Positions 39,427 through 60,453 of a stretch of 61,913 nucleotides of DNA are shown in pieces (the first letter of the stretch is position 1; every line of letters begins with the position of its first letter). Source of the stretch: Bacteroidales bacterium (lineage in GTDB: Bacteria > Bacteroidota > Bacteroidia > Bacteroidales > ML635J-15); assembly GCA_045112395.1 (NCBI GenBank), contig JBGUHW010000099.1, positions 1 through 61,913 on the forward strand, written 5' to 3'. Position numbers and translations under genes: made by a program. The notes below the pieces were generated by a model, which saw only the letters and a program-made list of their open reading frames with translations, did no database searches and was not told the origin of the DNA.

Positions 39427-39484
39427 AAAATAAATTAATTTTTAATAATTAAACTAAAACTCGCAGTTACCCGAACTGCGGGCG

Positions 39485-39492
39485 CAAAAGTA
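39485..39492 (-). promoter_or_regulatory. -7 box TACTTTTG upstream of rpsP, followed by a leader hairpin
   Basis: The reverse complement of caaaagta is TACTTTTG. The leader contains cgcagtt-cgggt-aactgcg (plus-strand 39462-39480). Confidence 0.45.
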
Positions 39493-39691
39493 CAACATTT
39501 TTCTTAAACGGCTAATCTTTTTATGAAAAACTTTTCTGCAACATTAATATCATGTAAACCAAAATGTTATACTGAACAAATAAAGTCATTGTACTACTTT
39601 TCGAATATAATAATACACAGCATGTTGTACTAAAATAATATATATAAGCTAAACATTTTCGCATTTTCTTTGGAAAACAATCAGTTATAAC

Positions 39692-39699
39692 TACCTTTG
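39692..39699 (+). promoter_or_regulatory. -7 box TACCTTTG upstream of the radical-SAM cassette
   Basis: Matches TAnnTTTG, 24 nt upstream of the ATG at 39724. The track start at 39697 is a TTG inside this box. Confidence 0.45.
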
Positions 39700-39723
39700 C
39701 ATACAAAAATCCCGACAAAGGAT

Positions 39724-41139
39724 ATGGTAAAGTTTTGTACAGCATACGAACCAATACGACAGCAAGTGCAACGCATTGCTAACAACCTGCACTACAAGCG
39801 ACACATTGCCCGCGATGTAGAAGATAGTGTTTTTCGGGAAAAGTTAATCGATTACAACAGGCAACGCACACTCGGTTGCGACCCTACAGTATGCCATGTT
39901 CCGTTGCGTAGCCTATATTTCGGGTTCGATGGAATTGTAACCGCATGCTGCTTCAACCGTAATTTTGTGCTGGGGAAATTTCCAGAAAACTCTATTGATG
40001 AAATAATTCATGGGGAAAGACGGAAAACATTGCAGAAACATATCTCAGAAACCAACTTTTCGTATGGTTGCCAATACTGCAAAAATATGATTACAGCAGG
40101 AAACTATATGTCTGTAGGTGCAAGATTTGCAGATGTCTTTCCCGATAAGGGCGACATCCCGTCCGAAATGGTTTTCGAACTCGACAACACCTGCAACCTG
40201 CGATGCGAGATGTGCAATGCAAAATTCTCGTCGGCACACAATGGTGGCAAACGCATTGTCGCTCCATACGACACCAATGAATTCATTGAGCAACTGAAAC
40301 CGTTCATCCCGCATCTTGCAAAAACACGTTTTTTAGGTGGAGAACCGTTTCTTAGCGACATATACCCGAAAATATGGGAACTTATAATAGAACTTAACCC
40401 AAAATGCAAGATTAGTTTACAGAGTAACGGCACTATACTAAACGAAAAAATCAAATCTATCCTACAACGAGGAAATTTCCATATAGGACTATCAATAGAC
40501 ACTCTAAATCCTGCACACTACGAAAGAATCAGAAGTGGTGCAAAAATTGAAAGAACATTAGAAAATCTTGAGTTTTTCAATTATATCTGTCAGAAGAACA
40601 ACGACCACGCAAGCATATCTGTTTGCCCGATGAAAGAAAACCGCCTAGATATTCCAGAACTTGTTGACTTTTGCAACAAAAAAGGCATTTACATATATTT
40701 CAACGATGTGATTACCGAAGGTTTTTCCATTAGCGAACTGTCGGTACAAGAACTTGATGAACTCTCAGCATATTACAAAAAAAACAATCGGAAAGGGCAT
40801 AATTATATTTCAATCCACAACCACATATCATTTTCTAACCTCATAAGAAAAGTTGAATATCATAGGGACCAACGCAAGCAAAAAATCTACATGGACGAAA
40901 CAATCCCTTGTACGCGAAAGGAATTTGTTGAAATGCTAACTACTATTATTTCGGAAGATGAAAGCATAGATATTAAGGAAGCGAAATACTTGGTGGATTA
41001 TATTCCTGAAAACTTTCTGATAAAACGAAGCGAATACCTGTACATAAAAAACGAAATGAAAATAGACAGCATAAAGAACTTTATAAGTCAGTCCAAAGAA
41101 AAACAAATGGAGCACTTAAACAAAATACTTCACATTTAA
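39724..41139 (+). CDS. radical SAM protein, paralog 1, with N-terminal SPASM/twitch-like Cys-rich domain
   Basis: CxxxCxxC motif (DNTCNLRCEMC). It is preceded by CHVPLRSLYFGFDGIVTACC...SIDEIIHG...YGCQYC, which follows the SPASM-type C..G-x4-C..C-x2-C pattern. A ~130-aa Cys-free helical tail follows. Confidence 0.85.
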   Translation: MVKFCTAYEPIRQQVQRIANNLHYKRHIARDVEDSVFREKLIDYNRQRTLGCDPTVCHVPLRSLYFGFDGIVTACCFNRNFVLGKFPENSIDEIIHGERRKTLQKHISETNFSYGCQYCKNMITAGNYMSVGARFADVFPDKGDIPSEMVFELDNTCNLRCEMCNAKFSSAHNGGKRIVAPYDTNEFIEQLKPFIPHLAKTRFLGGEPFLSDIYPKIWELIIELNPKCKISLQSNGTILNEKIKSILQRGNFHIGLSIDTLNPAHYERIRSGAKIERTLENLEFFNYICQKNNDHASISVCPMKENRLDIPELVDFCNKKGIYIYFNDVITEGFSISELSVQELDELSAYYKKNNRKGHNYISIHNHISFSNLIRKVEYHRDQRKQKIYMDETIPCTRKEFVEMLTTIISEDESIDIKEAKYLVDYIPENFLIKRSEYLYIKNEMKIDSIKNFISQSKEKQMEHLNKILHI

Positions 41140-41149
41140 ATATCTGGCA

Positions 41150-42562
41150 ATGAATATTTTGAAACTCTTCAAGAGAAATAAGTGGCACATACCCAACAGA
41201 ACCTTATCGGAATACAACAAGTTAAGGGGAAAAGATAAAACGCGGTTCTGCTATGCTCCATACCATTCATTGACATTCAAGCCAGATGGCTGCATATATG
41301 CATGTTTTGACAATATTCGTAAAAAACTTGGAGAATATCCGCAAAACTCCATCGCGGAAATATGGAACGGGAAAGAAATAAAAAAACTTCGTGAAAGAAT
41401 TTCCCGCAACTGCCTGGACTATGGCTGCGAAGAATGTTTCAACCAACTTGCACTCAAGAACTTCTACTCAGTAAAAGCATGGCACTACGATTATATCCGC
41501 CCCATTCATAAAAGCACAGATCAACCGACAGCATTTGATTTCCAGCTCAGCAATATATGCAACTACGAATGCATAATGTGTAGCGGAGAACTTTCGACCA
41601 GCATAAGAAGCAACCGCGAACATTCGCCACTTTACGGCTGCCCATACGATGACAAATTCATTGAACAACTGCGACCTTATATTCCCAACTTGCAAAACGC
41701 CTCTTTCACCGGCGGAGAAACATTCCTGAATCCTTTGTACTACAAGATTTGGGACATCATAGCAGAAGAAAATCCTCAGTGCATAATATCAGTTTCAACA
41801 AACGGAAGCATACTCGATGAGCGTATAAAATCATATTTGGAGAAACTGAAATTCAACATTACCATTTCGATAAACGCGGTTAATGAAGACATATACAAGT
41901 CGATACACATTGGCGGAGATATGCACCACGTGCTCGACAACTTCATATATTTCCGCGACTACTGCAAGAAGGCAGGAACCAATTTGATGATAAAGATTTG
42001 TCCGCTCAGGCAAAACATTTACCACATTCCAGCACTGATGGATTATTTCAACGCAAACGACACTTGCATATCGTTCAACAAGGTAATGTATCCCCCACAC
42101 TGCTCGTTATGGAATCTGCCAGCAGACGAACTTGGCAAAATCGTTGAATTTTTGAAGCAGAATAGAATAGACGCGAAAACCGAGATAGAACGACTTAATA
42201 ATGCTCGCTACGATACACTCATAAACCAATTGAGCAGATGGCAAAAAGATGGCGAAGAACAGGAGAAACTGAAACTTAAAGACAAGTCAAACGGCGAGCT
42301 AGTAACAATGTTTGAAAAGAAAATTAGGGATTATTATTCAACTTTAAATATGGATTCATCAGAATCCGAAACTGAAATCAAATCTATATTAGTGAAAATT
42401 GAAGAACTAGATAAAACATTGAATAATAATATCTTCAAGGAATTTATTATCTATATTACAGCACTTCCTACGAGTTTTGTCGTTCCCCACCTGAAACAGA
42501 AAAGTGTGGAAATGCTGAAACAGCGGTTACAATATTCTTTTCAAAACACAGAAACCAAATGA
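41150..42562 (+). CDS. radical SAM protein, paralog 2, same architecture
   Basis: CYAPYHSLTFKPDGCIYAC...SIAEIWNG...YGCEEC, followed by SNICNYECIMC. It is collinear with paralogs 1 and 3 (FIEQLRPYIP, GGETFL, STNGSIL). Confidence 0.85.
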   Translation: MNILKLFKRNKWHIPNRTLSEYNKLRGKDKTRFCYAPYHSLTFKPDGCIYACFDNIRKKLGEYPQNSIAEIWNGKEIKKLRERISRNCLDYGCEECFNQLALKNFYSVKAWHYDYIRPIHKSTDQPTAFDFQLSNICNYECIMCSGELSTSIRSNREHSPLYGCPYDDKFIEQLRPYIPNLQNASFTGGETFLNPLYYKIWDIIAEENPQCIISVSTNGSILDERIKSYLEKLKFNITISINAVNEDIYKSIHIGGDMHHVLDNFIYFRDYCKKAGTNLMIKICPLRQNIYHIPALMDYFNANDTCISFNKVMYPPHCSLWNLPADELGKIVEFLKQNRIDAKTEIERLNNARYDTLINQLSRWQKDGEEQEKLKLKDKSNGELVTMFEKKIRDYYSTLNMDSSESETEIKSILVKIEELDKTLNNNIFKEFIIYITALPTSFVVPHLKQKSVEMLKQRLQYSFQNTETK

Positions 42563-43950
42563 GTATGGCAAAGACCGACAAAAACATCATAAAGGAATTT
42601 AATGCGACACGAAGAAGCAAAAAATTTTTGTGCAATGCACCATTTTGCGCCATGCGGTTCAGCATAAGCGGACTTGTTTCCCCCTGCTGCCACTCTTTTG
42701 GATTAAACGACTGCTATCCCAACAGAAATATCCGGCAAATATGGGACGGAAGCATTTTTAAGGAATACCGCAAAAGCATACGAAATGGACAATTGCCAAA
42801 CTCATGCACATATTGTGAAAGCAGGCTAAAATCAAAGGAATTTTCACTAATTCCAATCCGACAATTCGACGACTTCAATGTCAAACGCATAGGATTCAAC
42901 AAACTCCAAACCCTCCAATTGGCAATAAGCAACAGATGCAACCTTAAATGCCCAATGTGCAATGAAATGTTTTCATCACAATACGATCAAACTGACACAT
43001 TCGGCAACAATAACATTTATGATGAAGCATTTATCAATGAACTTTACGAATACATTCCATATCTGAATGAATTGATATGCCTTGGAGGAGAACCTTTCCT
43101 AATCAATGAATATTATGACATCTGGGATAAAATAATAAATGAAAATCCGTCATGCAGAATCAGTGTCGTTACGAATGGAACAATACTTAATGACAGGATA
43201 AAACGGCTACTTGAATTAGGAAATTTCAGCATAAACCTCTCTTTCGAAACTATAGTAAAGGAAACATACGAAAAAATTCGTGTCAATGCCAACTACGACA
43301 CCGTGATTTCCAATATGGAGTATTTTGCCAAAGTGTTAAGGCAGCAGGGAAAAACATTGCAGATTCCTGCCTGTGCATTAAAGAGCAACTGTAAAGAGAT
43401 TCCTGATTTAGTGAGATTTTGCAACGAAAAAGAATATCACCTGACAATATTAACCACATACAGGGACATAGATGTTGCAATGTGGAGCTTATCTTCGAGC
43501 CAGTTGAAAGAATTGAAGGATTATTATCTCCAGCAAACATTTACAACCCACGACTGGAACTCGAACGACAATGTGTCGAATTTCAAAAACTTCATATCTA
43601 CAGTTGACAGATGGATTAATGATGCCGAAAAGAAAGAAAACTTTCAGAATATATTCGACCTGAAAACCGACAAGGTTGCCGACCTAAAGAATAGGCTATT
43701 TTCCAATATGGAAAAAAGTCTAAAAGAAACATCCCTGTCGGAAAATGACTTCTGCAAGAAGAGAGAATATGTTTTCGAAAAATGGAAACGCATAATGGAT
43801 AGTTTGCCCGAATATTTTGAAAGCAACCACTTATACAAAATACTATTGCAGGTTTCTCCATATATCATTGTTGAATATATGCTGAGGTGCAATAGCCAGA
43901 CAATGGCAAAAACATTAGAAGAAGGCTTTTATTACGGATTTACACATTGA
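42559..43950 (+). CDS. radical SAM protein, paralog 3, same architecture
   Basis: CNAPFCAMRFSISGLVSPCC...IRQIWDG...SCTYC, followed by SNRCNLKCPMC. There is an ATGA start/stop overlap with paralog 2. Confidence 0.85.
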   Translation: MSMAKTDKNIIKEFNATRRSKKFLCNAPFCAMRFSISGLVSPCCHSFGLNDCYPNRNIRQIWDGSIFKEYRKSIRNGQLPNSCTYCESRLKSKEFSLIPIRQFDDFNVKRIGFNKLQTLQLAISNRCNLKCPMCNEMFSSQYDQTDTFGNNNIYDEAFINELYEYIPYLNELICLGGEPFLINEYYDIWDKIINENPSCRISVVTNGTILNDRIKRLLELGNFSINLSFETIVKETYEKIRVNANYDTVISNMEYFAKVLRQQGKTLQIPACALKSNCKEIPDLVRFCNEKEYHLTILTTYRDIDVAMWSLSSSQLKELKDYYLQQTFTTHDWNSNDNVSNFKNFISTVDRWINDAEKKENFQNIFDLKTDKVADLKNRLFSNMEKSLKETSLSENDFCKKREYVFEKWKRIMDSLPEYFESNHLYKILLQVSPYIIVEYMLRCNSQTMAKTLEEGFYYGFTH

Positions 43951-43972
43951 AACAATTTACAAAAAATAAATT

Positions 43973-44572
43973 ATGATTATCGCAGGAGCAGGTTCGGCAG
44001 GAATTGAAACATTGGGAATATATCTTTCGACAGGAAAGACAGATATCGTTTTGTTCGATGACAAATCAAACACAAATGTTGAATTTTTAGGACAACAATA
44101 CAAAATTATCAGCACCGAAGAAGATTTGCTGTGCAAAATATCAAGAAATCCAGAATTTTGTGTTGCCGTTGGAAATCCAAGAATGCGAGAGAAACTTTTC
44201 GAAAGGCTTATCGCACTTGGTGGGAAGCCAACAAACATAGTAAATAGCAAGTTTTTATATTGCATATCCGACTTACCACAAAACGGATCCATTATACAGC
44301 CAGGCGTAAACATATCCTACGGCTTCGAAATGGGGAAATCGTGCATGCTTCACGCCAACTCAACTATCGGACACAAGGTCAAGCTTGGGAACTTTATAAA
44401 TGTTGGCCCCTCATGCGCCATCATCGGACCTTGCGAAATAGGCGACTATTCATATATAGGTGCAGGAAGCGTAATTCTTCCGCATCACAAAATTGGAAGA
44501 AATGTCGTTGTTTCGGCAGGAAGCGTTGTAAACAAAGACCTAACGGATTATGAAACATTTTCACAAGTATAA
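43973..44572 (+). CDS. NeuD/PglD-family sugar acyltransferase (left-handed beta-helix)
   Basis: N-terminal Rossmann-like IIAGAGSAG...VAVGNP, followed by hexapeptide repeats (IGHKVKLGNFINVGPSCAIIGPCEIGDYSYIGAGSVI). Confidence 0.8.
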   Translation: MIIAGAGSAGIETLGIYLSTGKTDIVLFDDKSNTNVEFLGQQYKIISTEEDLLCKISRNPEFCVAVGNPRMREKLFERLIALGGKPTNIVNSKFLYCISDLPQNGSIIQPGVNISYGFEMGKSCMLHANSTIGHKVKLGNFINVGPSCAIIGPCEIGDYSYIGAGSVILPHHKIGRNVVVSAGSVVNKDLTDYETFSQV

Positions 44573-44617
44573 CTTATGCATTTTGCGTAAAAAATTCATT
44601 TTTTCTGTTTTATAATG

Positions 44618-45358
44618 TTACTCCGCTTTCCTTGTTCCGTTACATTCTGGATACGATGAGCAACTCCAAAATTCTTTGCCTAAGTTGATGCCTTTTTTAG
44701 CAATACGCTTTATCATAGGTTTCCCACATTTTGGACATAATGGAGATTCTGTTTGAATACTTTGTTCAGTGCGGTAGGCAAGTCTTTCTGCTGTCAAGCC
44801 TTCAGTAAATCCACCTTCTTCACGAAAAGATGAAAGTAAAGTTTCAATTTGCTTGCCCAGCATTGATATTAGACGGTTACAAAGTGTCAGTATGCATCTG
44901 GCTTCGGTCATTGAATCGTTAGAATTGAACCATTCGTCCCACTTGTGTTTTTGTGTCAGTATGTGAATGCTGCTCAGATATTGGACATCTTCCTTGTAGT
45001 TTGCTCTATCAAGAAAGATTGCATTTACTTTTTTGTGTTCATCAGAATGAATTGACCAAGGAAGTTGTTCGTGCTGTAACAACCAATTTACATAGTCATT
45101 GGCCAATTCTGCAAGACTAGCTCTGGCAACATCAGTAAGTTTCATTTCCGTTTCCTTTGAAGTGGAATGGCGTGAGTTGCCTTCCGCAATGTTGGCAGGT
45201 ACAGAACGAGCGGCTTGTGTCATCTGGTCATATTGACGACCACAAGGGTCATTTGAGCGGTTAAGATAGCGTTTACAGAAATCTTGGGTGGCAAGTTGAA
45301 TTATGTTTGCCAAAACCCATGTGTCAAGCCAGAAATATGCTTGTCGAAATATTTTCAT
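44618..45358 (-). CDS. four-helix-bundle (23S rRNA IVS protein-like) protein fused to a topoisomerase-type C4 zinc finger
   Basis: QMTQAARSVPANIAEGNSRHSTSKE is the signature of the four-helix-bundle/S23p family. The C-terminus CPKCGKPM...FWSCSSYPECNG is a zf-C4-topoisomerase-like motif. Confidence 0.7.
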   Translation of the reverse strand: MKIFRQAYFWLDTWVLANIIQLATQDFCKRYLNRSNDPCGRQYDQMTQAARSVPANIAEGNSRHSTSKETEMKLTDVARASLAELANDYVNWLLQHEQLPWSIHSDEHKKVNAIFLDRANYKEDVQYLSSIHILTQKHKWDEWFNSNDSMTEARCILTLCNRLISMLGKQIETLLSSFREEGGFTEGLTAERLAYRTEQSIQTESPLCPKCGKPMIKRIAKKGINLGKEFWSCSSYPECNGTRKAE

Positions 45359-49688: not shown

Positions 49689-52600
49689 TTAGTACAAAAT
49701 TGATACTGTACCAGTGTAAGCCCTGTCTTTTTCAAGGTTTTCGAGGTTTACAATGTACAAGTAGACACCTGATGGCACATAATGTCCACGATAGCGTCCG
49801 TCCCATGGCTCGTCAGTACCACGTCCTTCGTACAGCAACTGTCCCCAACGGTTGTAAACATAAATGTATGCTTCGGGGAACATTCCTATATTCTCGATTA
49901 CCCAAGTGTCGTTCACACCGTCCTCGTTTGGTGTAAATACATTAGGAATCTTTATACATTCACCCACATGATCATACATTGAAAGTGCATTCATAGTTAT
50001 GCGACAATCGTTTGCATCGGTAATAGTTATGCTGTATGTTCCCTGAACAAGGTCTGTCATCATATTGGTTTCGTTTGCCGAATTTGCCCACGAGTATGTG
50101 TACGGAGCTTCACCACCAGTAACCTCCAATTCGATGCTTCCATCGCGTCCGCCAGTACATGAAGGAGGTATAATTAGCGGTGTTACCTTTATCTGTTCCG
50201 GCTCGGCTATACTTGTAGTTACAGATACTGTACATCCGTATACATCGGTGACAACCACCGAGTATATTCCTGCACTAAGTCCATCAAATATAGGACCACC
50301 TGTCATGGTCAAGTTGCCATAATGCATAGAATATTCTATTGGCGATGTTCCACCGCTGGCAGTTGCACTGATTTTTCCGCCTCTGCCGCCATAACATTGG
50401 ATGTCTGTAGTTTCGGCACTTACCAATAATCGTTCTGGCCATGTTATTGTATAGGTGCTTACGTTGGTACAACCATTACCATCAGAGATGGTTAGCGAGT
50501 AGCTTCCTGCTCCTAGTTCATTTATGCTGGAGTTGTGCGTTCCGTTGCTCCATGAATAGCTATATGGTTCTGTTCCTCCACTGACACTAACAGCGACCGT
50601 ACCGGCACGTTCTCCGAAACATTTTGGATTGCCTGAAGTTGAATTAATAGTTAGCGGACGCGGTTCGGTAACATCGTATGTTGCAGTACCTTCGCAACCC
50701 CATGCATCGGTAATAGTTACAGAATATGTGCCTGCGCCAACATTGAAGTTTGTCTGGTAGGTTGCTCCGTTGCTCCAGATGCAACTCTGGAATGGCATTG
50801 CAGCACTTTCTGATGTTACGACAAGAACACCAGTGTTGTTTCCGTTGCATGATATTGGATTCTGCTCTTCTATTACAGCAGGTATTATGCCGATATTCCT
50901 TATTGTTGCATTCTGTGCAAGCGTACAATTGTTTCCATCGGTTACTGTTACAGAATAATCTCCACTTGTAAGGTTAGAAATTGCATCTGCATCCGATCCA
51001 TTTGTCCATCTGTACTGATATGGAGTCTGACCGCCGTCAACACTAACCGATACGTTACCCAGCGATATTCCGCACTGTACATCCGCATGTGTCATGTTAA
51101 TTCGCATTGCATCTGGTTGCGATATTGTAGTTGAAGCCGTAGATGTACATCCTGTCGAATTATCGGTTACAGTTACATTATAGGTATTAGGTTCGAGAGA
51201 TGTTATGTTGGCCGAAGTCTGATTGTTTGACCATACATACGAATACGAGCCCGACCCACCAGTTACACTAGTCGTAATTATACCATTTCCAAAGCCATAG
51301 CATGTCACATCTGCAGGTGTAATTGTTATGGTCGGATTTGGATTTACAGTTAAGTTCAGTGTTACAACACTATCACATCCGTTTACAGTCAGCAAGTCCT
51401 GTACATAAGTACCGCGCACACTTTCGTTGAAGCCGTTTTCTGTATAAGTCTCACCTTCACAAATACTAGCATTGATTACCGGGTGATATGTTGGGTTTAC
51501 AGTTATTACACGTGTTGTTGGCTGCGCATTAGTACCAGTAAGGGCAATTCGGATGATATTTTCACCTGGTGTTGTCCATTCTACCTCTATTGTTTCTGTT
51601 CCTTGTCCCGAAATTATGTTTCCACCCTGAACAGTCCAGTTGTAATAACTTCCAGGAACTACAGTAGAGTAGGTTACTATGTCGCCTTGGCATACTGGGC
51701 TTGGTCCGTCAATTGGAATATCGCAGTAGTCAATGTTTATTGTACCGCTAACCGAAGTTTCATTGCAAGCTACATTTTGTCCTGTCGTTGTTATAGTGTA
51801 GTCGATTCTACCTACTCCACTAGCATTTCCACTGATAGTTATCTGGTTTCCTTCTTCGGAATAATCGATTCCGTATGCCGGGAATCCTGTTACCGATACA
51901 CCAGTAGCCCCACCTCCGTACTCGAAAGTGAGTTCGGTAATATCGTATAGGAAGCACGCGTCAAGTGGATTTACCGAGGATGGGGTTATCGTAGGTGGTG
52001 TTGCAAATGTTATTGTAACATCGTCCGAAACAACAGTAGATGGACAATGAACATTTTCGAAGCGCCATGTCATTGTAGCATCGTACGGATAGGTTGTTCC
52101 ATTATATGTTATTGTTGCAATAGGAGAACTTGCATCAGAAATACTTACATTTGCTGGCAAGTTCGTCCAACCGCCTATCCAATCCGAACTAGGCCACGAA
52201 GCATCAAGTGTATATTCGTTTGCACATACATTGTCATCGTCACCAGCTAATATCTCTGTAATATCATTGTACAATTCAAGATTATACATCTGGTTAAGTT
52301 GTGCCGAACAACCATTAGGAACCGAAATCGACGTTATGGTGAGTAGCATGGTTTCGGTTATCGTGTGTGATGCTTGATATGGTGTCGTAACAGTATAGTT
52401 TTCTGAATTTTCACCAGCAGAAATCGTGTATGTGACAGTAGCTCCTGAAGGATACGAGTTTATCATGAAATTCGAAGAACTTCCAGAGCACACAGGCGTA
52501 ATGCCAGTTACTTCAACTGTAGGAGACGGATTGATTGTGACATTGGCTTCTGCCGATTCGATTCCGCAGTCGTTAACGACATATGCAGTATATATTCCTG

Positions 52601-55600
52601 AGCTAATCGGACTTACATTTGTAAGTTCCAATGTATGGGTATTCGAATTTCCTATTTCTACTCCATTGAGCCTCCATTGGTATGCTGGATTGCAAAGGAG
52701 ATCTTCGTCAACATCTATACTTAGAGTTACATTTTCTCCTTCACAAGCAACTACATCGTTAATACTAAACGTTTCTACTTCAGGTTTAACTGTTACCGTA
52801 TCAAGAAGCACCTTTATTATACCACAGCAAGATGTCGAAAGTTCTGCTCGAACGATTGCCTGCTGTATTTGACCTGTAGTGTTATTGAATGCAACATTAA
52901 CACATCGTCCTGTTGTTACACTAGTAATTTCTGCTACTGTAGATGTGATGTCCCAATTTATGACTATTGATGGATCGAGTGCCACATCTGTTATGCAATA
53001 TTCGTGAACACTTGCACAACAAACGACATCATCGCCTTCCATTGTGACCTGAGGAAGAGATGGTGCTGCCTGAATCATAGTAATGAAATTAGTATAGTTA
53101 CCAGAAGATCCTGCAGGAGTTTTTAATCCTGTTGTAGAGTACGAAACAACGGTTCCACTAGCACCGCTAGTTGGGGTTGCTCCTGCTCCGAATGATGTAT
53201 ACGAAATACCACTCATTGCTATTCCAATGCCAGTACAACTTGCGATTGGGTGCTCGTCAGAACCAGCAATAATTTCAGTTTGATTTTCAAGGTTAAAGTT
53301 GTAGCCTGTTGATACCGATGATTGCAATCCTGCGTTGGTAACATTAGCGATCTTGAAAGCTACACCAGTTGCACCTTGTCCACCTTGACCGCCACGACCG
53401 CCTGCGCCGCCGTTGCCGCCTCTACCTCCAGTGCCTCCATAGGCAGTACCGCCGCAAGTATAACTGCAGCGAGAACCACCGACTCCTGCTCCACCTTGAC
53501 CACCGGCACCGCCATTTCCACCGGAACCACCAGCACCGCCTTGACCTCCTGTTCCTGTAAATATGTTACAATCAATTATACCTTCTGTATTTAAAGGTGT
53601 ATTATATAGGTATAATCCGAATGTGGAGCCACCGCCATAACCGCCGTAGCCGCCGTAGCCGCCGCCACCGCCGCCGCCACCGGCACCGCCAGGACCACCA
53701 CTTGATGTGGTTTCACTAAATGAAAGGAATTGCGAACAAGCTGCAGTACCGCCAGTGCCACCAGCACCGCCACCGCCACCACCGTAGCCACTGCCTCCTT
53801 GTCCCGATATGTTCGGTTTAAAGTATTCGTCGTAGTCAGTATTAACGATTTGCCTTGTCGTACCAGTTGCGCCTGCTATACCAGCAGAACCAGCACTACC
53901 AACTCCGCCAGTTCCACCATCTTCACTTTCGCAGCTTCCTACGTCACTTGTGGTATAGTTGGTTCCCGTTGAACCTTTGCTGCCGCCCTTGCCATTAGTA
54001 CTATTGTAATTTGAAGCATTGCCACCTGTAGAGCCTCCAGCTTGTGCTCCACTACCACCTCGCTGATCTCCTGTACCGCCTGGAGTCATGCCGTTTCCAG
54101 CTGCCCCAGCCGCACCTTGAATTCCCTGCTTGCCTGTTCCACCTGTTCCTGGCTTCAACTGGCATCTTACAATTTCGTAGTCATTACAATTTTTCAAGTG
54201 TACCGCATAGTTCGATATTCCATAGTTGGTTGCGGTTACTACTTGTTCATCAGTTGGAACCAAGTCGGCAGGAGAAAACCTATACACAAGTCCATTTGCA
54301 GGCTTGCATGTCTCGTTGAATGTACAGCCTACTGCCGATGCCACCTGTGTTGGGTTTGACCAGTCAGATGAAACACTGATATATTTTGACGAACCGGTCT
54401 GCCCGTCGCGAACACCTACACGAGGCGTCAATGTGGTTTCGGTACACGGATTAATACTTCCGTAGCAAATTTCAATCACATTTGTGTTTTCGTAGAGTTT
54501 TATTTGGAAACTTTCCGAATATGTCGAAGTACGACAGCTTGTTGAATATGGTACTAAGTTGAACCATTCTATTGTAAGTACTCCACCACTGTAATTTGAA
54601 TATATATTTCCGCTATATGGTGGATAAAGGTCATGAAGCAATGCTAACACTGAACTTGTGCTAGGAGCAGAAAGCGTTCCCGAAGGTGCATCACCAAAGG
54701 TTATAAATCCATTGGAGCAAACATACAATGTCGAGCCACTGAAATAGGTTGTTCCGCACAAAGTGAAGTCGAAAGGAAGAGTTATTGGCAATGATGCATC
54801 GTCGCCAAACGAACCTATTACATTTGATGTGTTGTGTGGAATATTGGAATATGCCCTTGTGACCGTCTCGAAGTTCCATCCACTGCAACTGTAGAGATAC
54901 GAAACTTGACTACCGCCTGGCAAATCGTTTCGTGCATCTTGTGTTTCGATTGTCAAGTCCTGCAGACGGAATCCACTTACTGCATCACCCTTCACAGCAA
55001 CAACCGCAGGAGAATTGGCACTACCAAGCGCGTATGTATTTGTACGACGAATAGTCGTTGCTCCTGCCCTTGATGTCTTCTTGTTGAAGTTGTCGAAATA
55101 ACCACCTTCAATCGTCACATTACTTACAAGATCTAGCGGATAGTCGAGTTCGTATGTGCCTTCTGCCATTCTTATTATAGCACCTGAACATTCCGACATT
55201 CTAAGTGCAGAAATAATATTTGTAGGGTCGGAAGGCGTCATTCCACTGCCATCACCATTTACATCAACATACACAACATTGCACTCGTTCATCGAGTTTA
55301 CATCAATTACCTCCACTACAACATCCGTTTCGCCAGTACAACCCAGAGGAGTGCTAACTGTTACTTGGTATGTTGTTGTTGCAGACGGAGCCACACTTAT
55401 TTCAGGAGCATGTTCTCCACTTGACCATGAATAAGAACAGTTGTCACAATTTGAGACCACAGTTGACAGAGTAACATTGGTGCCACCGCAAAGCCTTACA
55501 TATCCGGGCTGAATTGCCACTGTTGGACTAGGATGAGCCGTAATGCTTGCGCTAGAAATATCAGAACAAGTGTTTGTTACAGAAGAATTTGTCTGTGGAT

Positions 55601-56819
55601 TATTTACTGTTGTCGTGTTCGATACCGTCACATAGTATCTTGTGGAAGATGTTGGATTGTCCGTTGCATTTTGAGTGTTCGCTCCAGTAGACCACGCATA
55701 AGCCGTTGCGTTAGTTGCAGATACAGAAAGTTGTATTTGATCGCCGGAACAAATTTCAGAAGGAGTTGCGCTTAGCGATGTAATGCTTGGCTTTGGCGTT
55801 ACAATCACGTATGTGTAAAACGAATTGGTTCTGCTTGCTGTCGAAATTTGCAGTTCGTACCAGCCCGTCATGGCAGTAGTTGCATTTGGCCGTGATACAG
55901 CAGTTCCTGTTCCGATTTGAGTTCCAGTAGCAGTTTGATTTGCACCGTTAAAGTACCATCTATAGGATGTTGCATTGTTTACATTCGAGCACGAAAGTGT
56001 TATAGTTGCACCTTCGCATACGGGAGAATTGGAAGTCACATTGGCTATAATATTGCAGTCGGTAGTTGCCTGACCATTTAGCCAGCTTTGGTGCTGCGAG
56101 TTAAAAAGAATTGTTCCAGCCTGCTTTGAATAGTTTGTAATCAGGAAGATGTACCATTGTCCAGCTTGAGCATTAGGTATGTAGCACCATTCTGTATCTT
56201 CTGTGGTATAACTACAGTCGATGATATTTCCATCAGGATAGCCACCCATGTCACCCGAGTGGTTTCCGTTGCTTGGACGGTGGCTTCCGTTGCTTGTGCT
56301 TGTATTAAGTCCACCTGTACATCTTGTCCTGACAAGTTCCTCGGCACTTGCGGCAGTGAAAGGCCCCCAGCAAACAAAATCTATGTCGTAGCCATTGCTA
56401 TGTTCCATGTATATAAGCAAGTCGCCGGGATTGTCGATTCGCATATAGAACCATGCTGGCGAAGGTGTTGTATAACAGCAGGCAATGTCTTCTCCTCCAC
56501 TACTGAAGTCGGTTGCCTGGGTACTACTTGTTCCGGCAGGGAACGAGTAAGAACCCTCGTCGGTACAGAATGCAAGTGCCTCGTTGCAGAAGTCAGCACT
56601 AACACCACCACTTCGCAGTTGCTTAAACTGATTTTCAGTATAAAACTGCACATCAACTCCAGAAGCTTTCAGAAATGCGTATTCTTCACGTTCATCTGCA
56701 GTCATTTCGTCAAGCGGTTTTGCCCTAAGCAATTCCAACCGCTGATAGTCTATTTTCGACTGAGAAAATAGCCATGGCGACAACAAAACGAGTGTCAAGC
56801 AGGTTATAACTTTTTCCAT
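49689..56819 (-). CDS. giant T9SS-secreted cell-surface protein (SprB-repeat/Ig-like adhesin with type-B C-terminal sorting domain)
   Basis: Signal peptide MEKVITCLTLVLLSPWLFSQ (ATG at 56819). Many Ig-like modules, a ~266-aa Gly-rich block, and about 8 SprB-type repeats (e.g. CYGFGNGIITTSVTGGSGSYSYVWSN...VTVTD..GCT). The C-terminus IPNVFTPNEDGVNDTWVI...YNRWGQLLYE...WDG...PSGVYLYIV is the gliding-motility/T9SS type-B CTD. Confidence 0.9.
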   Translation of the reverse strand: MEKVITCLTLVLLSPWLFSQSKIDYQRLELLRAKPLDEMTADEREEYAFLKASGVDVQFYTENQFKQLRSGGVSADFCNEALAFCTDEGSYSFPAGTSSTQATDFSSGGEDIACCYTTPSPAWFYMRIDNPGDLLIYMEHSNGYDIDFVCWGPFTAASAEELVRTRCTGGLNTSTSNGSHRPSNGNHSGDMGGYPDGNIIDCSYTTEDTEWCYIPNAQAGQWYIFLITNYSKQAGTILFNSQHQSWLNGQATTDCNIIANVTSNSPVCEGATITLSCSNVNNATSYRWYFNGANQTATGTQIGTGTAVSRPNATTAMTGWYELQISTASRTNSFYTYVIVTPKPSITSLSATPSEICSGDQIQLSVSATNATAYAWSTGANTQNATDNPTSSTRYYVTVSNTTTVNNPQTNSSVTNTCSDISSASITAHPSPTVAIQPGYVRLCGGTNVTLSTVVSNCDNCSYSWSSGEHAPEISVAPSATTTYQVTVSTPLGCTGETDVVVEVIDVNSMNECNVVYVDVNGDGSGMTPSDPTNIISALRMSECSGAIIRMAEGTYELDYPLDLVSNVTIEGGYFDNFNKKTSRAGATTIRRTNTYALGSANSPAVVAVKGDAVSGFRLQDLTIETQDARNDLPGGSQVSYLYSCSGWNFETVTRAYSNIPHNTSNVIGSFGDDASLPITLPFDFTLCGTTYFSGSTLYVCSNGFITFGDAPSGTLSAPSTSSVLALLHDLYPPYSGNIYSNYSGGVLTIEWFNLVPYSTSCRTSTYSESFQIKLYENTNVIEICYGSINPCTETTLTPRVGVRDGQTGSSKYISVSSDWSNPTQVASAVGCTFNETCKPANGLVYRFSPADLVPTDEQVVTATNYGISNYAVHLKNCNDYEIVRCQLKPGTGGTGKQGIQGAAGAAGNGMTPGGTGDQRGGSGAQAGGSTGGNASNYNSTNGKGGSKGSTGTNYTTSDVGSCESEDGGTGGVGSAGSAGIAGATGTTRQIVNTDYDEYFKPNISGQGGSGYGGGGGGAGGTGGTAACSQFLSFSETTSSGGPGGAGGGGGGGGYGGYGGYGGGSTFGLYLYNTPLNTEGIIDCNIFTGTGGQGGAGGSGGNGGAGGQGGAGVGGSRCSYTCGGTAYGGTGGRGGNGGAGGRGGQGGQGATGVAFKIANVTNAGLQSSVSTGYNFNLENQTEIIAGSDEHPIASCTGIGIAMSGISYTSFGAGATPTSGASGTVVSYSTTGLKTPAGSSGNYTNFITMIQAAPSLPQVTMEGDDVVCCASVHEYCITDVALDPSIVINWDITSTVAEITSVTTGRCVNVAFNNTTGQIQQAIVRAELSTSCCGIIKVLLDTVTVKPEVETFSINDVVACEGENVTLSIDVDEDLLCNPAYQWRLNGVEIGNSNTHTLELTNVSPISSGIYTAYVVNDCGIESAEANVTINPSPTVEVTGITPVCSGSSSNFMINSYPSGATVTYTISAGENSENYTVTTPYQASHTITETMLLTITSISVPNGCSAQLNQMYNLELYNDITEILAGDDDNVCANEYTLDASWPSSDWIGGWTNLPANVSISDASSPIATITYNGTTYPYDATMTWRFENVHCPSTVVSDDVTITFATPPTITPSSVNPLDACFLYDITELTFEYGGGATGVSVTGFPAYGIDYSEEGNQITISGNASGVGRIDYTITTTGQNVACNETSVSGTINIDYCDIPIDGPSPVCQGDIVTYSTVVPGSYYNWTVQGGNIISGQGTETIEVEWTTPGENIIRIALTGTNAQPTTRVITVNPTYHPVINASICEGETYTENGFNESVRGTYVQDLLTVNGCDSVVTLNLTVNPNPTITITPADVTCYGFGNGIITTSVTGGSGSYSYVWSNNQTSANITSLEPNTYNVTVTDNSTGCTSTASTTISQPDAMRINMTHADVQCGISLGNVSVSVDGGQTPYQYRWTNGSDADAISNLTSGDYSVTVTDGNNCTLAQNATIRNIGIIPAVIEEQNPISCNGNNTGVLVVTSESAAMPFQSCIWSNGATYQTNFNVGAGTYSVTITDAWGCEGTATYDVTEPRPLTINSTSGNPKCFGERAGTVAVSVSGGTEPYSYSWSNGTHNSSINELGAGSYSLTISDGNGCTNVSTYTITWPERLLVSAETTDIQCYGGRGGKISATASGGTSPIEYSMHYGNLTMTGGPIFDGLSAGIYSVVVTDVYGCTVSVTTSIAEPEQIKVTPLIIPPSCTGGRDGSIELEVTGGEAPYTYSWANSANETNMMTDLVQGTYSITITDANDCRITMNALSMYDHVGECIKIPNVFTPNEDGVNDTWVIENIGMFPEAYIYVYNRWGQLLYEGRGTDEPWDGRYRGHYVPSGVYLYIVNLENLEKDRAYTGTVSILY

Positions 56820-57165
56820 TGTGCGTATTTCTTTATAAAAAATCTTCATAATCTTCATAATTATTACATAAAAGCAACTGCATAAATAGCTGGTTTTCCT
56901 TATGTTACAAACGCAACATCCGAAAAATGTCACTACATATAACGACCGCAATTTAAAACTTTTTTAAGAAATAGGCAAGTTTTTTTGCTTATTTTCTAAT
57001 AGTCATAACGATTAACTGAAAAATAGGTTGCCTGATCGCTTTAGATTTTCATTTTCTAAAAGCAAATCCAGTTTTAGTTTTGATTAGTTTTTTATGATTG
57101 CATGCCGCATATTTTGCATTATTGCATAACAATTATTGGATGGCGAATGACAAGTCCACGCAAAT

Positions 57166-59528: not shown

Positions 59529-59882
59529 TTAGCGAGCAAACTTTTCCACAATTTCAAGAAGCTGACTCCTATTTATAGGCTTTGAAATAAAGTCGTTGAA
59601 AAGCAAATATTCGTTTCGTTCCATATTGTTTATGGCCGAAGATGCGACAATATTGGTATCTGGTTTTATCTTTTTTATTTGCCTTGAAGTTTCAACACCA
59701 TTTATTTCCGGCATCTTCAAGTCCATGATTATCAAATTGTAATTATTTATAGTGGCCATTTCTATTGCATTATGTCCATTTGATGCATAATCGACAAAAT
59801 ATCCTTCGCGTTCCAATATTGCATTGAGCAACTTGAAATTAATGGGTTCGTCATCGACCACTAAAATCGTGCCTTTTTTCAT
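59529..59882 (-). CDS. stand-alone response-regulator receiver domain protein
   Basis: MKKGTILVVDDEP and the phospho-acceptor context LIIMDLKMP. There is no output domain. The track start at 59963 adds an unlikely extension. Confidence 0.8.
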   Translation of the reverse strand: MKKGTILVVDDEPINFKLLNAILEREGYFVDYASNGHNAIEMATINNYNLIIMDLKMPEINGVETSRQIKKIKPDTNIVASSAINNMERNEYLLFNDFISKPINRSQLLEIVEKFAR

Positions 59883-59977
59883 TAGGTCAGTGTTTGTACA
59901 CCGCAAAATTATAGTTTTTTCAGCATTGCGAAAAATAAAAGTTGATTTTTGTAGCATGTGCATTGTCGGAAAAGTTG

Positions 59978-60006: not shown

Positions 60007-60453
60007 ATGAATGAACTTTCGCATAAGATAATCTCGAAACTGCCCTACGGAGATGATTTTCGGTTCGTTGACGAAATTACTTTTGTCAATGATTATCGGA
60101 TTGTCGGGAACTATACATTTAGGGCGGATGCACCATATTATGCTTCTCATTATCCGCATTATGCAGTCACTCCGGGAGTGTTGCTTCTGGAATGCATGGG
60201 ACAAATCGGACTTGTTGCGCATCTTGTATACCTTGAAAAAATATACGAGCGCGAGAATGTCGCGTTGACTCCCTCGTTGTCGAATGTGCATGCATCGTTT
60301 TACTTGCCTGTCGGACAAGGCGAAAAGGTTACTGTTGATGCAACTAAGGTATATTACCGAGCAGGAGTATTGAAGTCGGATATTTTGTTGCAAAATGCAA
60401 AAGGCGAAGAGTGCGCTCGTGCTATTGCCCACCTAAAATTTGTTGAAAAATGA
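60007..60453 (+). CDS. FabZ/FabA-like hotdog-fold 3-hydroxyacyl-ACP dehydratase
   Basis: LPYGDDFRFVDEI, HYPHYAVTPGVLLLECMGQ is a FabZ-type His/Glu active-site context. There is an ATGA overlap with the next gene. Confidence 0.8.
   Translation: MNELSHKIISKLPYGDDFRFVDEITFVNDYRIVGNYTFRADAPYYASHYPHYAVTPGVLLLECMGQIGLVAHLVYLEKIYERENVALTPSLSNVHASFYLPVGQGEKVTVDATKVYYRAGVLKSDILLQNAKGEECARAIAHLKFVEK

Follow-up and report, generated by a model that had tools for sequence, protein, structure and literature searches.

A radical SAM gene array in a Bacteroidales bacterium is probably one half of a rearranged surface-glycan tailoring locus

The DNA analysed here (the window) is 61,913 nt of contig JBGUHW010000099.1 (assembly GCA_045112395.1, positions 1-61,913, forward strand) from a Bacteroidales bacterium of the ML635J-15 lineage. 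It carries a cassette of four genes, which encode three paralogous radical S-adenosylmethionine (SAM) enzymes (rSAM_A, rSAM_B and rSAM_C; rSAM, radical SAM) and a PglD-like acyltransferase. An earlier note on this DNA had taken the cassette for a self-contained orphan with an undescribed architecture. Comparison with related loci points instead to a glycan-pathway tailoring module, the four genes probably being half of a locus for the biosynthesis and tailoring of a surface glycan, broken apart by a rearrangement. The cassette has the following features.

39692-39699, + strand: TAnnTTTG box (TACCTTTG), candidate for the -7 promoter element of Bacteroidota, with 32 nt between it and the downstream ATG 39724
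39724-41139, + strand: rSAM_A, radical SAM enzyme with N-terminal twitch, 471 aa counted from the ATG; Pfam SPASM then Radical_SAM
39892-40080, + strand: twitch segment of rSAM_A (putative auxiliary [4Fe-4S] segment), PF13186; invariant Cys C66, C84, C125 and C128
41150-42562, + strand: rSAM_B, N-terminal-twitch radical SAM enzyme, 470 aa; Pfam SPASM then Radical_SAM
41249-41437, + strand: twitch segment of rSAM_B (putative auxiliary [4Fe-4S] segment); invariant C34, C52 (after G47-x4), C93 and C96
42559-43950, + strand: rSAM_C, N-terminal-twitch radical SAM enzyme, 463 aa; Pfam SPASM then Radical_SAM
42631-42816, + strand: twitch segment of rSAM_C (putative auxiliary [4Fe-4S] segment), PF13186 at aa 25-86
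43973-44572, + strand: PglD/PerB/VioB-like left-handed beta-helix N-acyltransferase, 199 aa; PglD_N and Hexapep

The genes lie on the same strand and are tightly packed, as had been described: the gap between rSAM_A and rSAM_B is 10 nt, rSAM_B and rSAM_C overlap by 4 nt (ATGA, checked in the sequence), and 22 nt separate rSAM_C from the acyltransferase gene. A terminator scan found no terminator-like site within 39.7-44.6 kb, and the four genes probably form one operon. The listed open reading frame (ORF) of rSAM_A, 480 aa long, starts at TTG 39697; since this codon sits within the TAnnTTTG box TACCTTTG, ATG 39724 is probably the true start and the protein 471 aa long. The single box reported ahead of the cassette is a plausible promoter element, but the motif is frequent (33 occurrences on the + strand of the window and 42 on the - strand), so the box is taken as supportive only. 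A scan for sigma-70 promoters was also run, but such a scan is uninformative in Bacteroidota. Since an Rfam search of the whole window gave no match, no riboswitch is placed before the operon. The region between rpsP and rSAM_A is 96% conserved in L009, a locus from a 92%-identical relative.

Within this divergent intergenic region, a GTACAAC/GTTGTAC motif occurs four times (39486-39631), and a perfect 10-nt inverted repeat is formed by AGTACAACAT (39489) and ATGTTGTACT (39622). These repeats may be an operator. An invertible promoter upstream of rSAM_A was considered and rejected, as the TAnnTTTG box falls outside the inverted repeat. On the - strand at 39462-39480, a terminator-like hairpin (CGCAGTTCGGGTAACTGCG followed by a T-run) without an Rfam match lies ~35 nt 5' of the start codon of rpsP; it may serve the rpsP-rimM operon as a leader or attenuator element.

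The three rSAM proteins share 29-35% identity. Pfam places SPASM (PF13186) at aa 66-128 of rSAM_A (480-aa numbering), 34-96 of rSAM_B and 25-86 of rSAM_C, with Radical_SAM (PF04055) downstream at aa 164-324, 133-279 and 123-261, respectively (E 1e-12 to 1e-17). The SPASM match of rSAM_C scores 18.4 bits, under the 21.5-bit gathering cutoff, and contains the same four aligned Cys. This order agrees with the earlier description of collinear paralogues whose auxiliary-cluster domain precedes the core, and it is permuted relative to BtrN and anSME. The radical SAM motifs are CNLRCEMC, CNYECIMC and CNLKCPMC; in an alignment of 37 homologues, CxxxCxxC and G188 G189 E190 are invariant.

SPASM domains proper have about seven Cys (CX9-15GX4C...CX2CX5CX3C...C) and bind two auxiliary clusters. 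Each window protein does have the 6-7 N-terminal Cys counted in the earlier note, which had matched them to a SPASM/twitch pattern, but only four are invariant across the 37 homologues, in the pattern C...G-x4-C...CxxC (C34, G47, C52, C93 and C96, rSAM_B numbering); the extra two or three in each protein are not conserved. A profile search of the PDB aligned the N-terminal segment to the twitch domain of BtrN (residues 161-238, E 5e-11), matching the Gly and all four Cys, while the radical SAM core aligned weakly to the BtrN N-terminus (8-9 bits). In BtrN, the matched Cys are the ligands of its single auxiliary [4Fe-4S] cluster. Because only four Cys are invariant and these align with the BtrN twitch Cys, the comparison indicates that the N-terminal domain is a one-cluster twitch rather than a two-cluster SPASM, in an order permuted with respect to BtrN.

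BtrN, the prototype twitch enzyme, is the 2-deoxy-scyllo-inosamine dehydrogenase of the butirosin pathway and acts on a carbohydrate-type substrate. Its twitch domain (PDB 4M7T/4M7S) is the closest solved relative of that in the window, Cys for Cys (C...G-x4-C...CxxC). The two differ in that the twitch of BtrN is C-terminal, whereas it is N-terminal in all three window proteins and throughout their family; BtrN is also smaller (~250-270 aa), lacks a helical C-terminal domain, and serves aminoglycoside rather than surface-glycan biosynthesis. The classical rSAM-SPASM enzymes (anSME, PqqE, AlbA/SkfB/CteB) share the core fold (Foldseek E ~1e-6) and the Pfam SPASM match, but their SPASM domain is C-terminal, whereas the window domain is N-terminal with four invariant Cys.

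The AlphaFold2 model of rSAM_B (pLDDT 92.9, pTM 0.90) comprises a twitch hairpin (strands E40-43 and E48-50) with helices, a (beta/alpha)6 core and a C-terminal domain of ~140 aa that is all-helical. This domain had been described as a Cys-free helical tail; the helical character is borne out by the model, but only rSAM_B is Cys-free, rSAM_A having one Cys and rSAM_C two. A Foldseek search of the PDB with the full-length model gave no full-length match, only generic radical SAM cores (viperin, SkfB, anSME, MoaA, BlsE and DesII; TMq ~0.35). The C-terminal domain modelled alone (pLDDT 90) had no significant Foldseek match in the PDB (best E 2.2).

Homology searches also placed the proteins within a catalogued family. 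The top NCBIfam match of all three is NF033640 ('N_Twi_rSAM'), aligned over model positions 2 to ~370 of 398, so that the architecture of an N-terminal twitch followed by a radical SAM core, which had been called undescribed, is already on record. The scores (123.4, 147.8 and 141.4 bits for A, B and C) fall below the curated cutoff of 170, as do those of all 37 Bacteroidales-clade homologues; among ten wider relatives found with a profile of the window clade, five pass at 173-194 bits and five score 153-167. Because close homologues lie below the cutoff and half of the distant ones above it, the family is best described as a continuum around the curated model, with the window genes in its divergent tail. 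Besides their scores, the window proteins and their 37-member clade differ from NF033640 in the clade-specific helical C-terminal domain of ~140 aa. An exhaustive profile scan at E<=1e-30 gave 1,466 clusters at 50% identity, and a scan of one genome per GTDB species gave 478 loci in Bacteroidales, Chitinophagales, Flavobacteriales, Acidobacteriota, Planctomycetota, Gemmatimonadota and other taxa.

Four representatives of the family (P0062, P0063, P0066 and P0073; 870-981 aa) contain two complete N-twitch rSAM units. They are either true fusions, which would hint that neighbouring paralogues cooperate, or artefacts of overlapping start and stop codons.

The remaining part of the locus was found near the far end of the window. 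Searches by tblastn with proteins from a related locus detected three genes 15.5 kb downstream of the cassette, listed here with the synteny breakpoint that follows the acyltransferase gene.

44573-44617, no strand: synteny breakpoint; collinearity with L009 stops at ~44576, right after the PglD stop codon (blastn)
60007-60453, + strand: FabA/FabZ-like dehydratase, PF07977 and a FabZ-like NCBIfam match; 90% identical to the L008 gene
60450-61718, + strand: beta-ketoacyl synthase (KS), FabF-like, with the N and C domains of ketoacyl-synt; shares 91% identity with the KS of L008
61721-61912, + strand: start of a short-chain dehydrogenase/reductase-type ketoreductase (KR), truncated where the window ends; over 64 aa it shares 86-89% identity with the L008 and L006 KR

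The KS scores 305 bits against the fabF model, below the equivalog cutoff of 494. Locus L008 comes from a deer-gut Bacteroidales metagenome-assembled genome whose housekeeping genes are 91-98% identical to those of the window (mrp 97%, Era 98%), a level of identity that marks it as a congener. Its genes run contiguously in the order mrp, rimM, rpsP, two rSAM genes, PglD, a classical rSAM gene with C-terminal SPASM (cSPASM), KR, KS, FabA, a response regulator, Era, RadC and SprB-like. In the window the order is rpsP, rSAM_A, rSAM_B, rSAM_C, PglD, a four-helix-bundle (4HB) gene, mutB, mutA, SprB-like, RadC, Era, the response regulator (59529-59963), FabA, KS and KR. The block after PglD is thus inverted relative to L008, and a single inversion with one breakpoint right after the PglD stop codon is the simplest account. 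Since FabA, KS and KR of L008 stand next to PglD and its array of rSAM genes, at the rpsP site that the window cassette also occupies, the window locus looks to have been split by rearrangement, and the description of the cassette as an orphan does not hold. From synteny with L008 and L006, a classical C-terminal-SPASM rSAM gene is predicted just beyond the window end, after KR.

PglD is followed by cSPASM-KR-KS-FabA in L008, by a defence island in L009 and by 4HB-mutBA in the window; in L006 the arrangement differs again, mutB there lying against the cluster's epimerase end. Because L009 and L006 show these further arrangements, the junction after PglD is judged rearrangement-prone. A search for inverted repeats at the rearrangement boundaries found nothing convincing. 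The gene standing exactly at the breakpoint (44618-45358, - strand) encodes a 246-aa fusion of a four-helix bundle (23S rRNA intervening-sequence protein family), a '4helix_suffix' domain and a topoisomerase-I-type C4 zinc ribbon. The defence island of L009 (14206-19613), right after the acyltransferase gene, comprises an AbiEii-like AAA ATPase, RloB, an N6/N4 DNA methylase and an Abi_C protein.

The acyltransferase contains PglD_N (PF17836) and Hexapep (PF00132) domains and matches the NeuD family model TIGR03570 at 128.9 bits, short of the 160.8-bit cutoff. Its closest solved structures in the PDB comparison are PerB, VioB, the PglB acetyltransferase domain and PglD, with which it shares the PglD_N domain and the left-handed beta-helix, so that the NeuD/PglD-type assignment of the earlier note is upheld. 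All four of these enzymes N-acetylate nucleoside diphosphate (NDP)-4-amino-4,6-dideoxyhexoses. The His of the GHK motif in the window protein aligns with the His of the PerB DHD motif, the catalytic base. The acyltransferase is 86-94% identical in L008 (86%) and L009, and its genomic linkage to KS, KR and FabA suggests that its acyl donor may be longer than acetyl.

In larger arrays, rSAM_A, rSAM_B and rSAM_C each have orthologues of their own. Those of rSAM_A are 60-84% identical (L009 84%, L007 65%, L003 60%) and stand first in their arrays, those of rSAM_C are 75-94% identical (L009 94%, L006 91%, L003 75%) and stand last, and those of rSAM_B are 49-93% identical (L009 93%, L006 81%, L008 67%). 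Because of these orthologues, the window array is read as a trimmed A-x-x-x-B-C array of ancient paralogues; a recent triplication is ruled out by the 29-35% identity between paralogues together with the 60-94% orthologues elsewhere. Among 55 loci of at least 15 kb, the number of paralogues ranged from one to seven (15, 16, 10, 6, 2, 4 and 2 loci for 1, 2, 3, 4, 5, 6 and 7 paralogues, respectively), and even between congeners L008 has two where the window has three. Between these two, the rSAM genes are 44-67% identical and the surrounding genes 86-100%, which gives the locus the pattern of a hypervariable surface antigen.

The A-B-C-PglD unit is conserved in L009. Relative to L009, dN/dS is 0.15, 0.09 and 0.10 for A, B and C and 0.13 for the acyltransferase, values from which the four genes are judged to be functional and under purifying selection. 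For rSAM_A compared with L009 8575-9990, dS is 0.64 (0.23-0.38 for its neighbours) and protein identity 84% (93-99% for its neighbours), which suggests a separate recombination history of this gene within the array.

The genes that travel with the arrays were counted by unbiased ORF clustering over 63 loci from several phyla, followed by Pfam. The commonest partners were an AsnB-like amidotransferase and a GT8-like protein (24 of the 63 loci each), followed by SGNH/GDSL (19), UbiA prenyltransferase (18), Wzt and Wzm (15 each), B12-rSAM and a DXD glycosyltransferase (GT_DXD) (14 each), and GT2 and sulfotransferase (12 each). PglD and an epimerase each occurred in 11 loci, a methyltransferase and GT-C/TPR in 9, a cSPASM rSAM and GT4 in 8, KS and FabA in 7, DegT in 6 and a carbamoyltransferase in 5. 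DegT-PglD and Wzm-Wzt adjoin arrays in L020, L023, L062 and L081. In relatives the arrays adjoin GT2, the AsnB-like enzyme, DegT, PglD, epimerase, KS, FabA, acyl carrier protein (ACP) and phosphopantetheinyl transferase (PPTase) genes, and a dedicated ACP family recurs in four related loci. The three rSAM genes and PglD do travel together, in L009, and other relatives add glycan genes; the neighbourhood, as read from gene content, is one of surface-polysaccharide assembly and tailoring.

Three partner families lack a confident Pfam or NCBIfam assignment (representatives at L001 20068-21297, L003 13-1167, L001 8765-9988 and L006 3936-5633): a ~400-aa protein that faintly matches GT8 and occurs in 24 of the 63 loci; a lipoprotein of ~410-500 aa that has a signal peptide and matches a transglutaminase core weakly; and a membrane-anchored protein of ~565 aa. 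None of them (unk409/384, unk407 and unk565) had a Pfam or NCBIfam match above 0.001. A conserved single-pass membrane peptide of ~50 aa (beginning MEFLKDIWGFLKERKKFWL) occurs in five loci (L004 19016-19240, L023 3051-3200, L028, L029 and L077), next to carbamoyltransferase genes in L004 and L023.

From these genes we infer a substrate class and a chemistry for the module. KS, KR and the dehydratase would assemble a short acyl chain, of the hydroxy- or enoyl-acyl kind, by a route like that of type II fatty acid synthesis, and the PglD/PerB/VioB-like enzyme would move it onto the 4-amino group of an NDP-4-amino-4,6-dideoxyhexose. Each rSAM enzyme would hold one [4Fe-4S] cluster at CxxxCxxC and one fully Cys-ligated auxiliary [4Fe-4S] cluster in the N-terminal twitch. 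The 5'-deoxyadenosyl radical would abstract a hydrogen from a sugar carbon, or from a carbon of the N-acyl side chain, of a nucleotide- or lipid-linked glycan precursor, and the auxiliary cluster would accept an electron from the substrate radical. The model adopted is BtrN, in which hydrogen abstraction is followed by electron transfer to the auxiliary cluster. This would result either in a two-electron oxidation of the BtrN/anSME type or in a reaction derived from such an oxidation (epimerisation or dehydration). Each paralogue may install a different modification, and the surface antigen would be diversified as paralogues are gained, lost and exchanged. That the chemistry is specifically BtrN-like, a proposal made by analogy, is rather doubtful.

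A partial counterpart exists in the O-polysaccharide locus of Flavobacterium psychrophilum, where two beta-ketoacyl-ACP synthases, a KR, an ACP and an acyltransferase (wfpC-wfpG) are proposed to build a 3,5-dihydroxyhexanoyl group and attach it to UDP-Qui2NAc4N (PMC6519341). It is a surface-polysaccharide locus of a member of the Bacteroidota, and the KS, KR, dehydratase and PglD-like acyltransferase of the window recall the KS/KR genes and the acyltransferase acting on a 4-amino-4,6-dideoxy sugar, wfpG and the window enzyme being likened by role and not by sequence homology. The F. psychrophilum locus differs in having an ACP, where the window has no dedicated one, and its description mentions no radical SAM genes (PMC6519341).

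Several observations weigh against the proposed glycan pathway. No glycosyltransferase, aminotransferase, exporter (Wzm/Wzt) or ACP gene was found within the 61.9-kb window, so the pathway is inferred from relatives, and the AsnB-like and GT8-like proteins, the commonest partners of the arrays, are likewise absent from the window. The locus does run past the window end, and in some of the 15 related loci with Wzm/Wzt these genes stand directly beside PglD and the rSAM array. The second rearrangement breakpoint lies outside the window. Since PglD, KS and FabA accompany the arrays in only 7-11 of the 63 loci, the link to an N-acyl branch is clade-specific. The radical SAM core is about equally similar to viperin and MoaA, which act on nucleotides, to anSME, which acts on a peptide, and to BtrN, so that similarity does not fix the chemistry. 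Searches of the literature and the PDB found no paper on the N_Twi_rSAM family, no solved structure and no member with a known reaction; the few papers that did match were unrelated genome papers on Xanthomonas and Arcobacter.

The same acyl genes admit another substrate. The rSAM enzymes could act on a carrier-bound acyl chain (acyl-ACP or acyl-CoA from KS, KR and FabA), which they would desaturate, cyclise, hydroxylate or cross-link, giving a modified lipid or N-acyl group. The tight linkage of the Bacteroidales-clade arrays to KS, FabA, KR, ACP and PPTase genes fits this alternative, as do the dedicated ACP family and the arrays that adjoin B12-rSAM arrays in other loci; B12-rSAM enzymes are typical C-methylases of unactivated carbons. 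About 50 of the 63 array loci, however, have glycan genes and no KS, FabA or ACP nearby, and BtrN, the nearest solved twitch relative, takes a carbohydrate-like substrate. We consider the acyl-chain substrate unlikely.

The reading of the earlier note, a horizontally acquired, AT-rich orphan cassette encoding an undescribed permuted SPASM/twitch system for three sequential radical steps, draws on the tight packing of a probable operon, on the lack of an assigned function for NF033640, and on L009, where the four-gene unit also stands without adjacent partners. The GC content of the cassette genes (0.37-0.40) is indeed below the window mean (0.43) and the immediate flanks (0.44-0.50), so the lower GC that the note had seen is real, if modest. 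The case for an AT-rich codon signature is weak: GC3 of the cassette genes (0.37-0.45) overlaps that of mrp (0.44), rpsP (0.41) and the SprB-like gene (0.34), so the AT-richness is mostly a matter of amino-acid composition and not of foreign codons, and a foreign AT-rich island was rejected. The catalogued architecture and the partner genes, present in the window and contiguous with the cassette in L008, speak against an orphan system, and the A-x-x-x-B-C orthologues in arrays of one to seven genes argue against a fixed three-step pathway. The orphan reading is largely refuted and has little chance of being right.

A role as maturases of ribosomally made, post-translationally modified peptides (RiPPs), with precursors encoded elsewhere or missed, was also weighed. 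The rSAM-SPASM/twitch superfamily is rich in peptide maturases, the window proteins weakly match SkfB, CteB, anSME and many rSAM peptide-maturase NCBIfams, and AsnB-like enzymes include lasso-peptide cyclases. However, the only small ORF upstream of rSAM_A (39523-39633, 36 aa) loses its ATG in L009, and no precursor-like small-ORF family recurs across the 63 loci, in agreement with the earlier remark that no precursor peptide accompanies the cassette. The rSAM proteins have no RiPP recognition element or PqqD-like domain by Pfam, and the all-helical C-terminal domain is without a PDB match; neither a peptide substrate nor a recognition element of the kind associated with classical rSAM-SPASM enzymes was found at the cassette. 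The neighbours are glycan genes, and the AsnB-like protein scores far higher against asparagine-synthase and exopolysaccharide amidotransferase models than against the lasso cyclase model. A peptide substrate is highly improbable.

That the cassette is a decaying remnant, cut off from the rest of its locus by the rearrangement, could be argued from its trimmed array (five to seven genes in L003, L006 and L007) and its distance of 15 kb from KS/KR, but is barely credible given three intact ORFs with all invariant Cys and the GGE motif, the low dN/dS (0.09-0.15) and the A-B-C-PglD unit conserved in L009.

Between mutA and RadC, a 2,420-aa SprB-like protein is encoded on the - strand (49689-56951). 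It is 85% identical to its L008 counterpart over the available 915 aa, and the Pfam labels of the L003 counterpart assign it to the gliding-motility adhesin type.

The reading as a surface-glycan tailoring locus changes what is new about this DNA. The N-terminal-twitch architecture belongs to a family already catalogued, and the cassette is not an orphan but half of a rearranged locus; no description of hypervariable arrays of N-twitch rSAM genes in glycan loci was found in the literature. Aminoglycosides, nucleosides and peptides are well-studied substrates of radical SAM chemistry, while to our knowledge the radical SAM tailoring of O-antigen- or capsule-type surface glycans is almost unexplored. 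The family, with at least 1,466 clusters at 50% identity, sits in variable arrays within glycan loci of gut, rumen, soil and aquatic bacteria, and solving one member would annotate thousands of genes. With its permuted twitch, it lends itself naturally to testing how electron transfer depends on where the auxiliary cluster sits with respect to the barrel. With less than even confidence, we hypothesize that N-twitch rSAM arrays form a radical tailoring module, widespread and hypervariable, that acts on the surface glycans of bacteria. In it, every paralogue would have its own C-H functionalisation to perform on a sugar or its N-acyl side chain, be it oxidation, epimerisation, dehydration, or the formation of a C-C or C-X bond, and swaps of paralogues would give antigenic diversity. 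New sugar or N-acyl modifications of this kind may matter for serotype diversity, for phage receptors and for recognition by the host immune system in Bacteroidales. If the hypothesis is true, the enzymes of the module would represent a class of radical glycan modifiers that has not been described before and that is spread over Bacteroidota and several further phyla.

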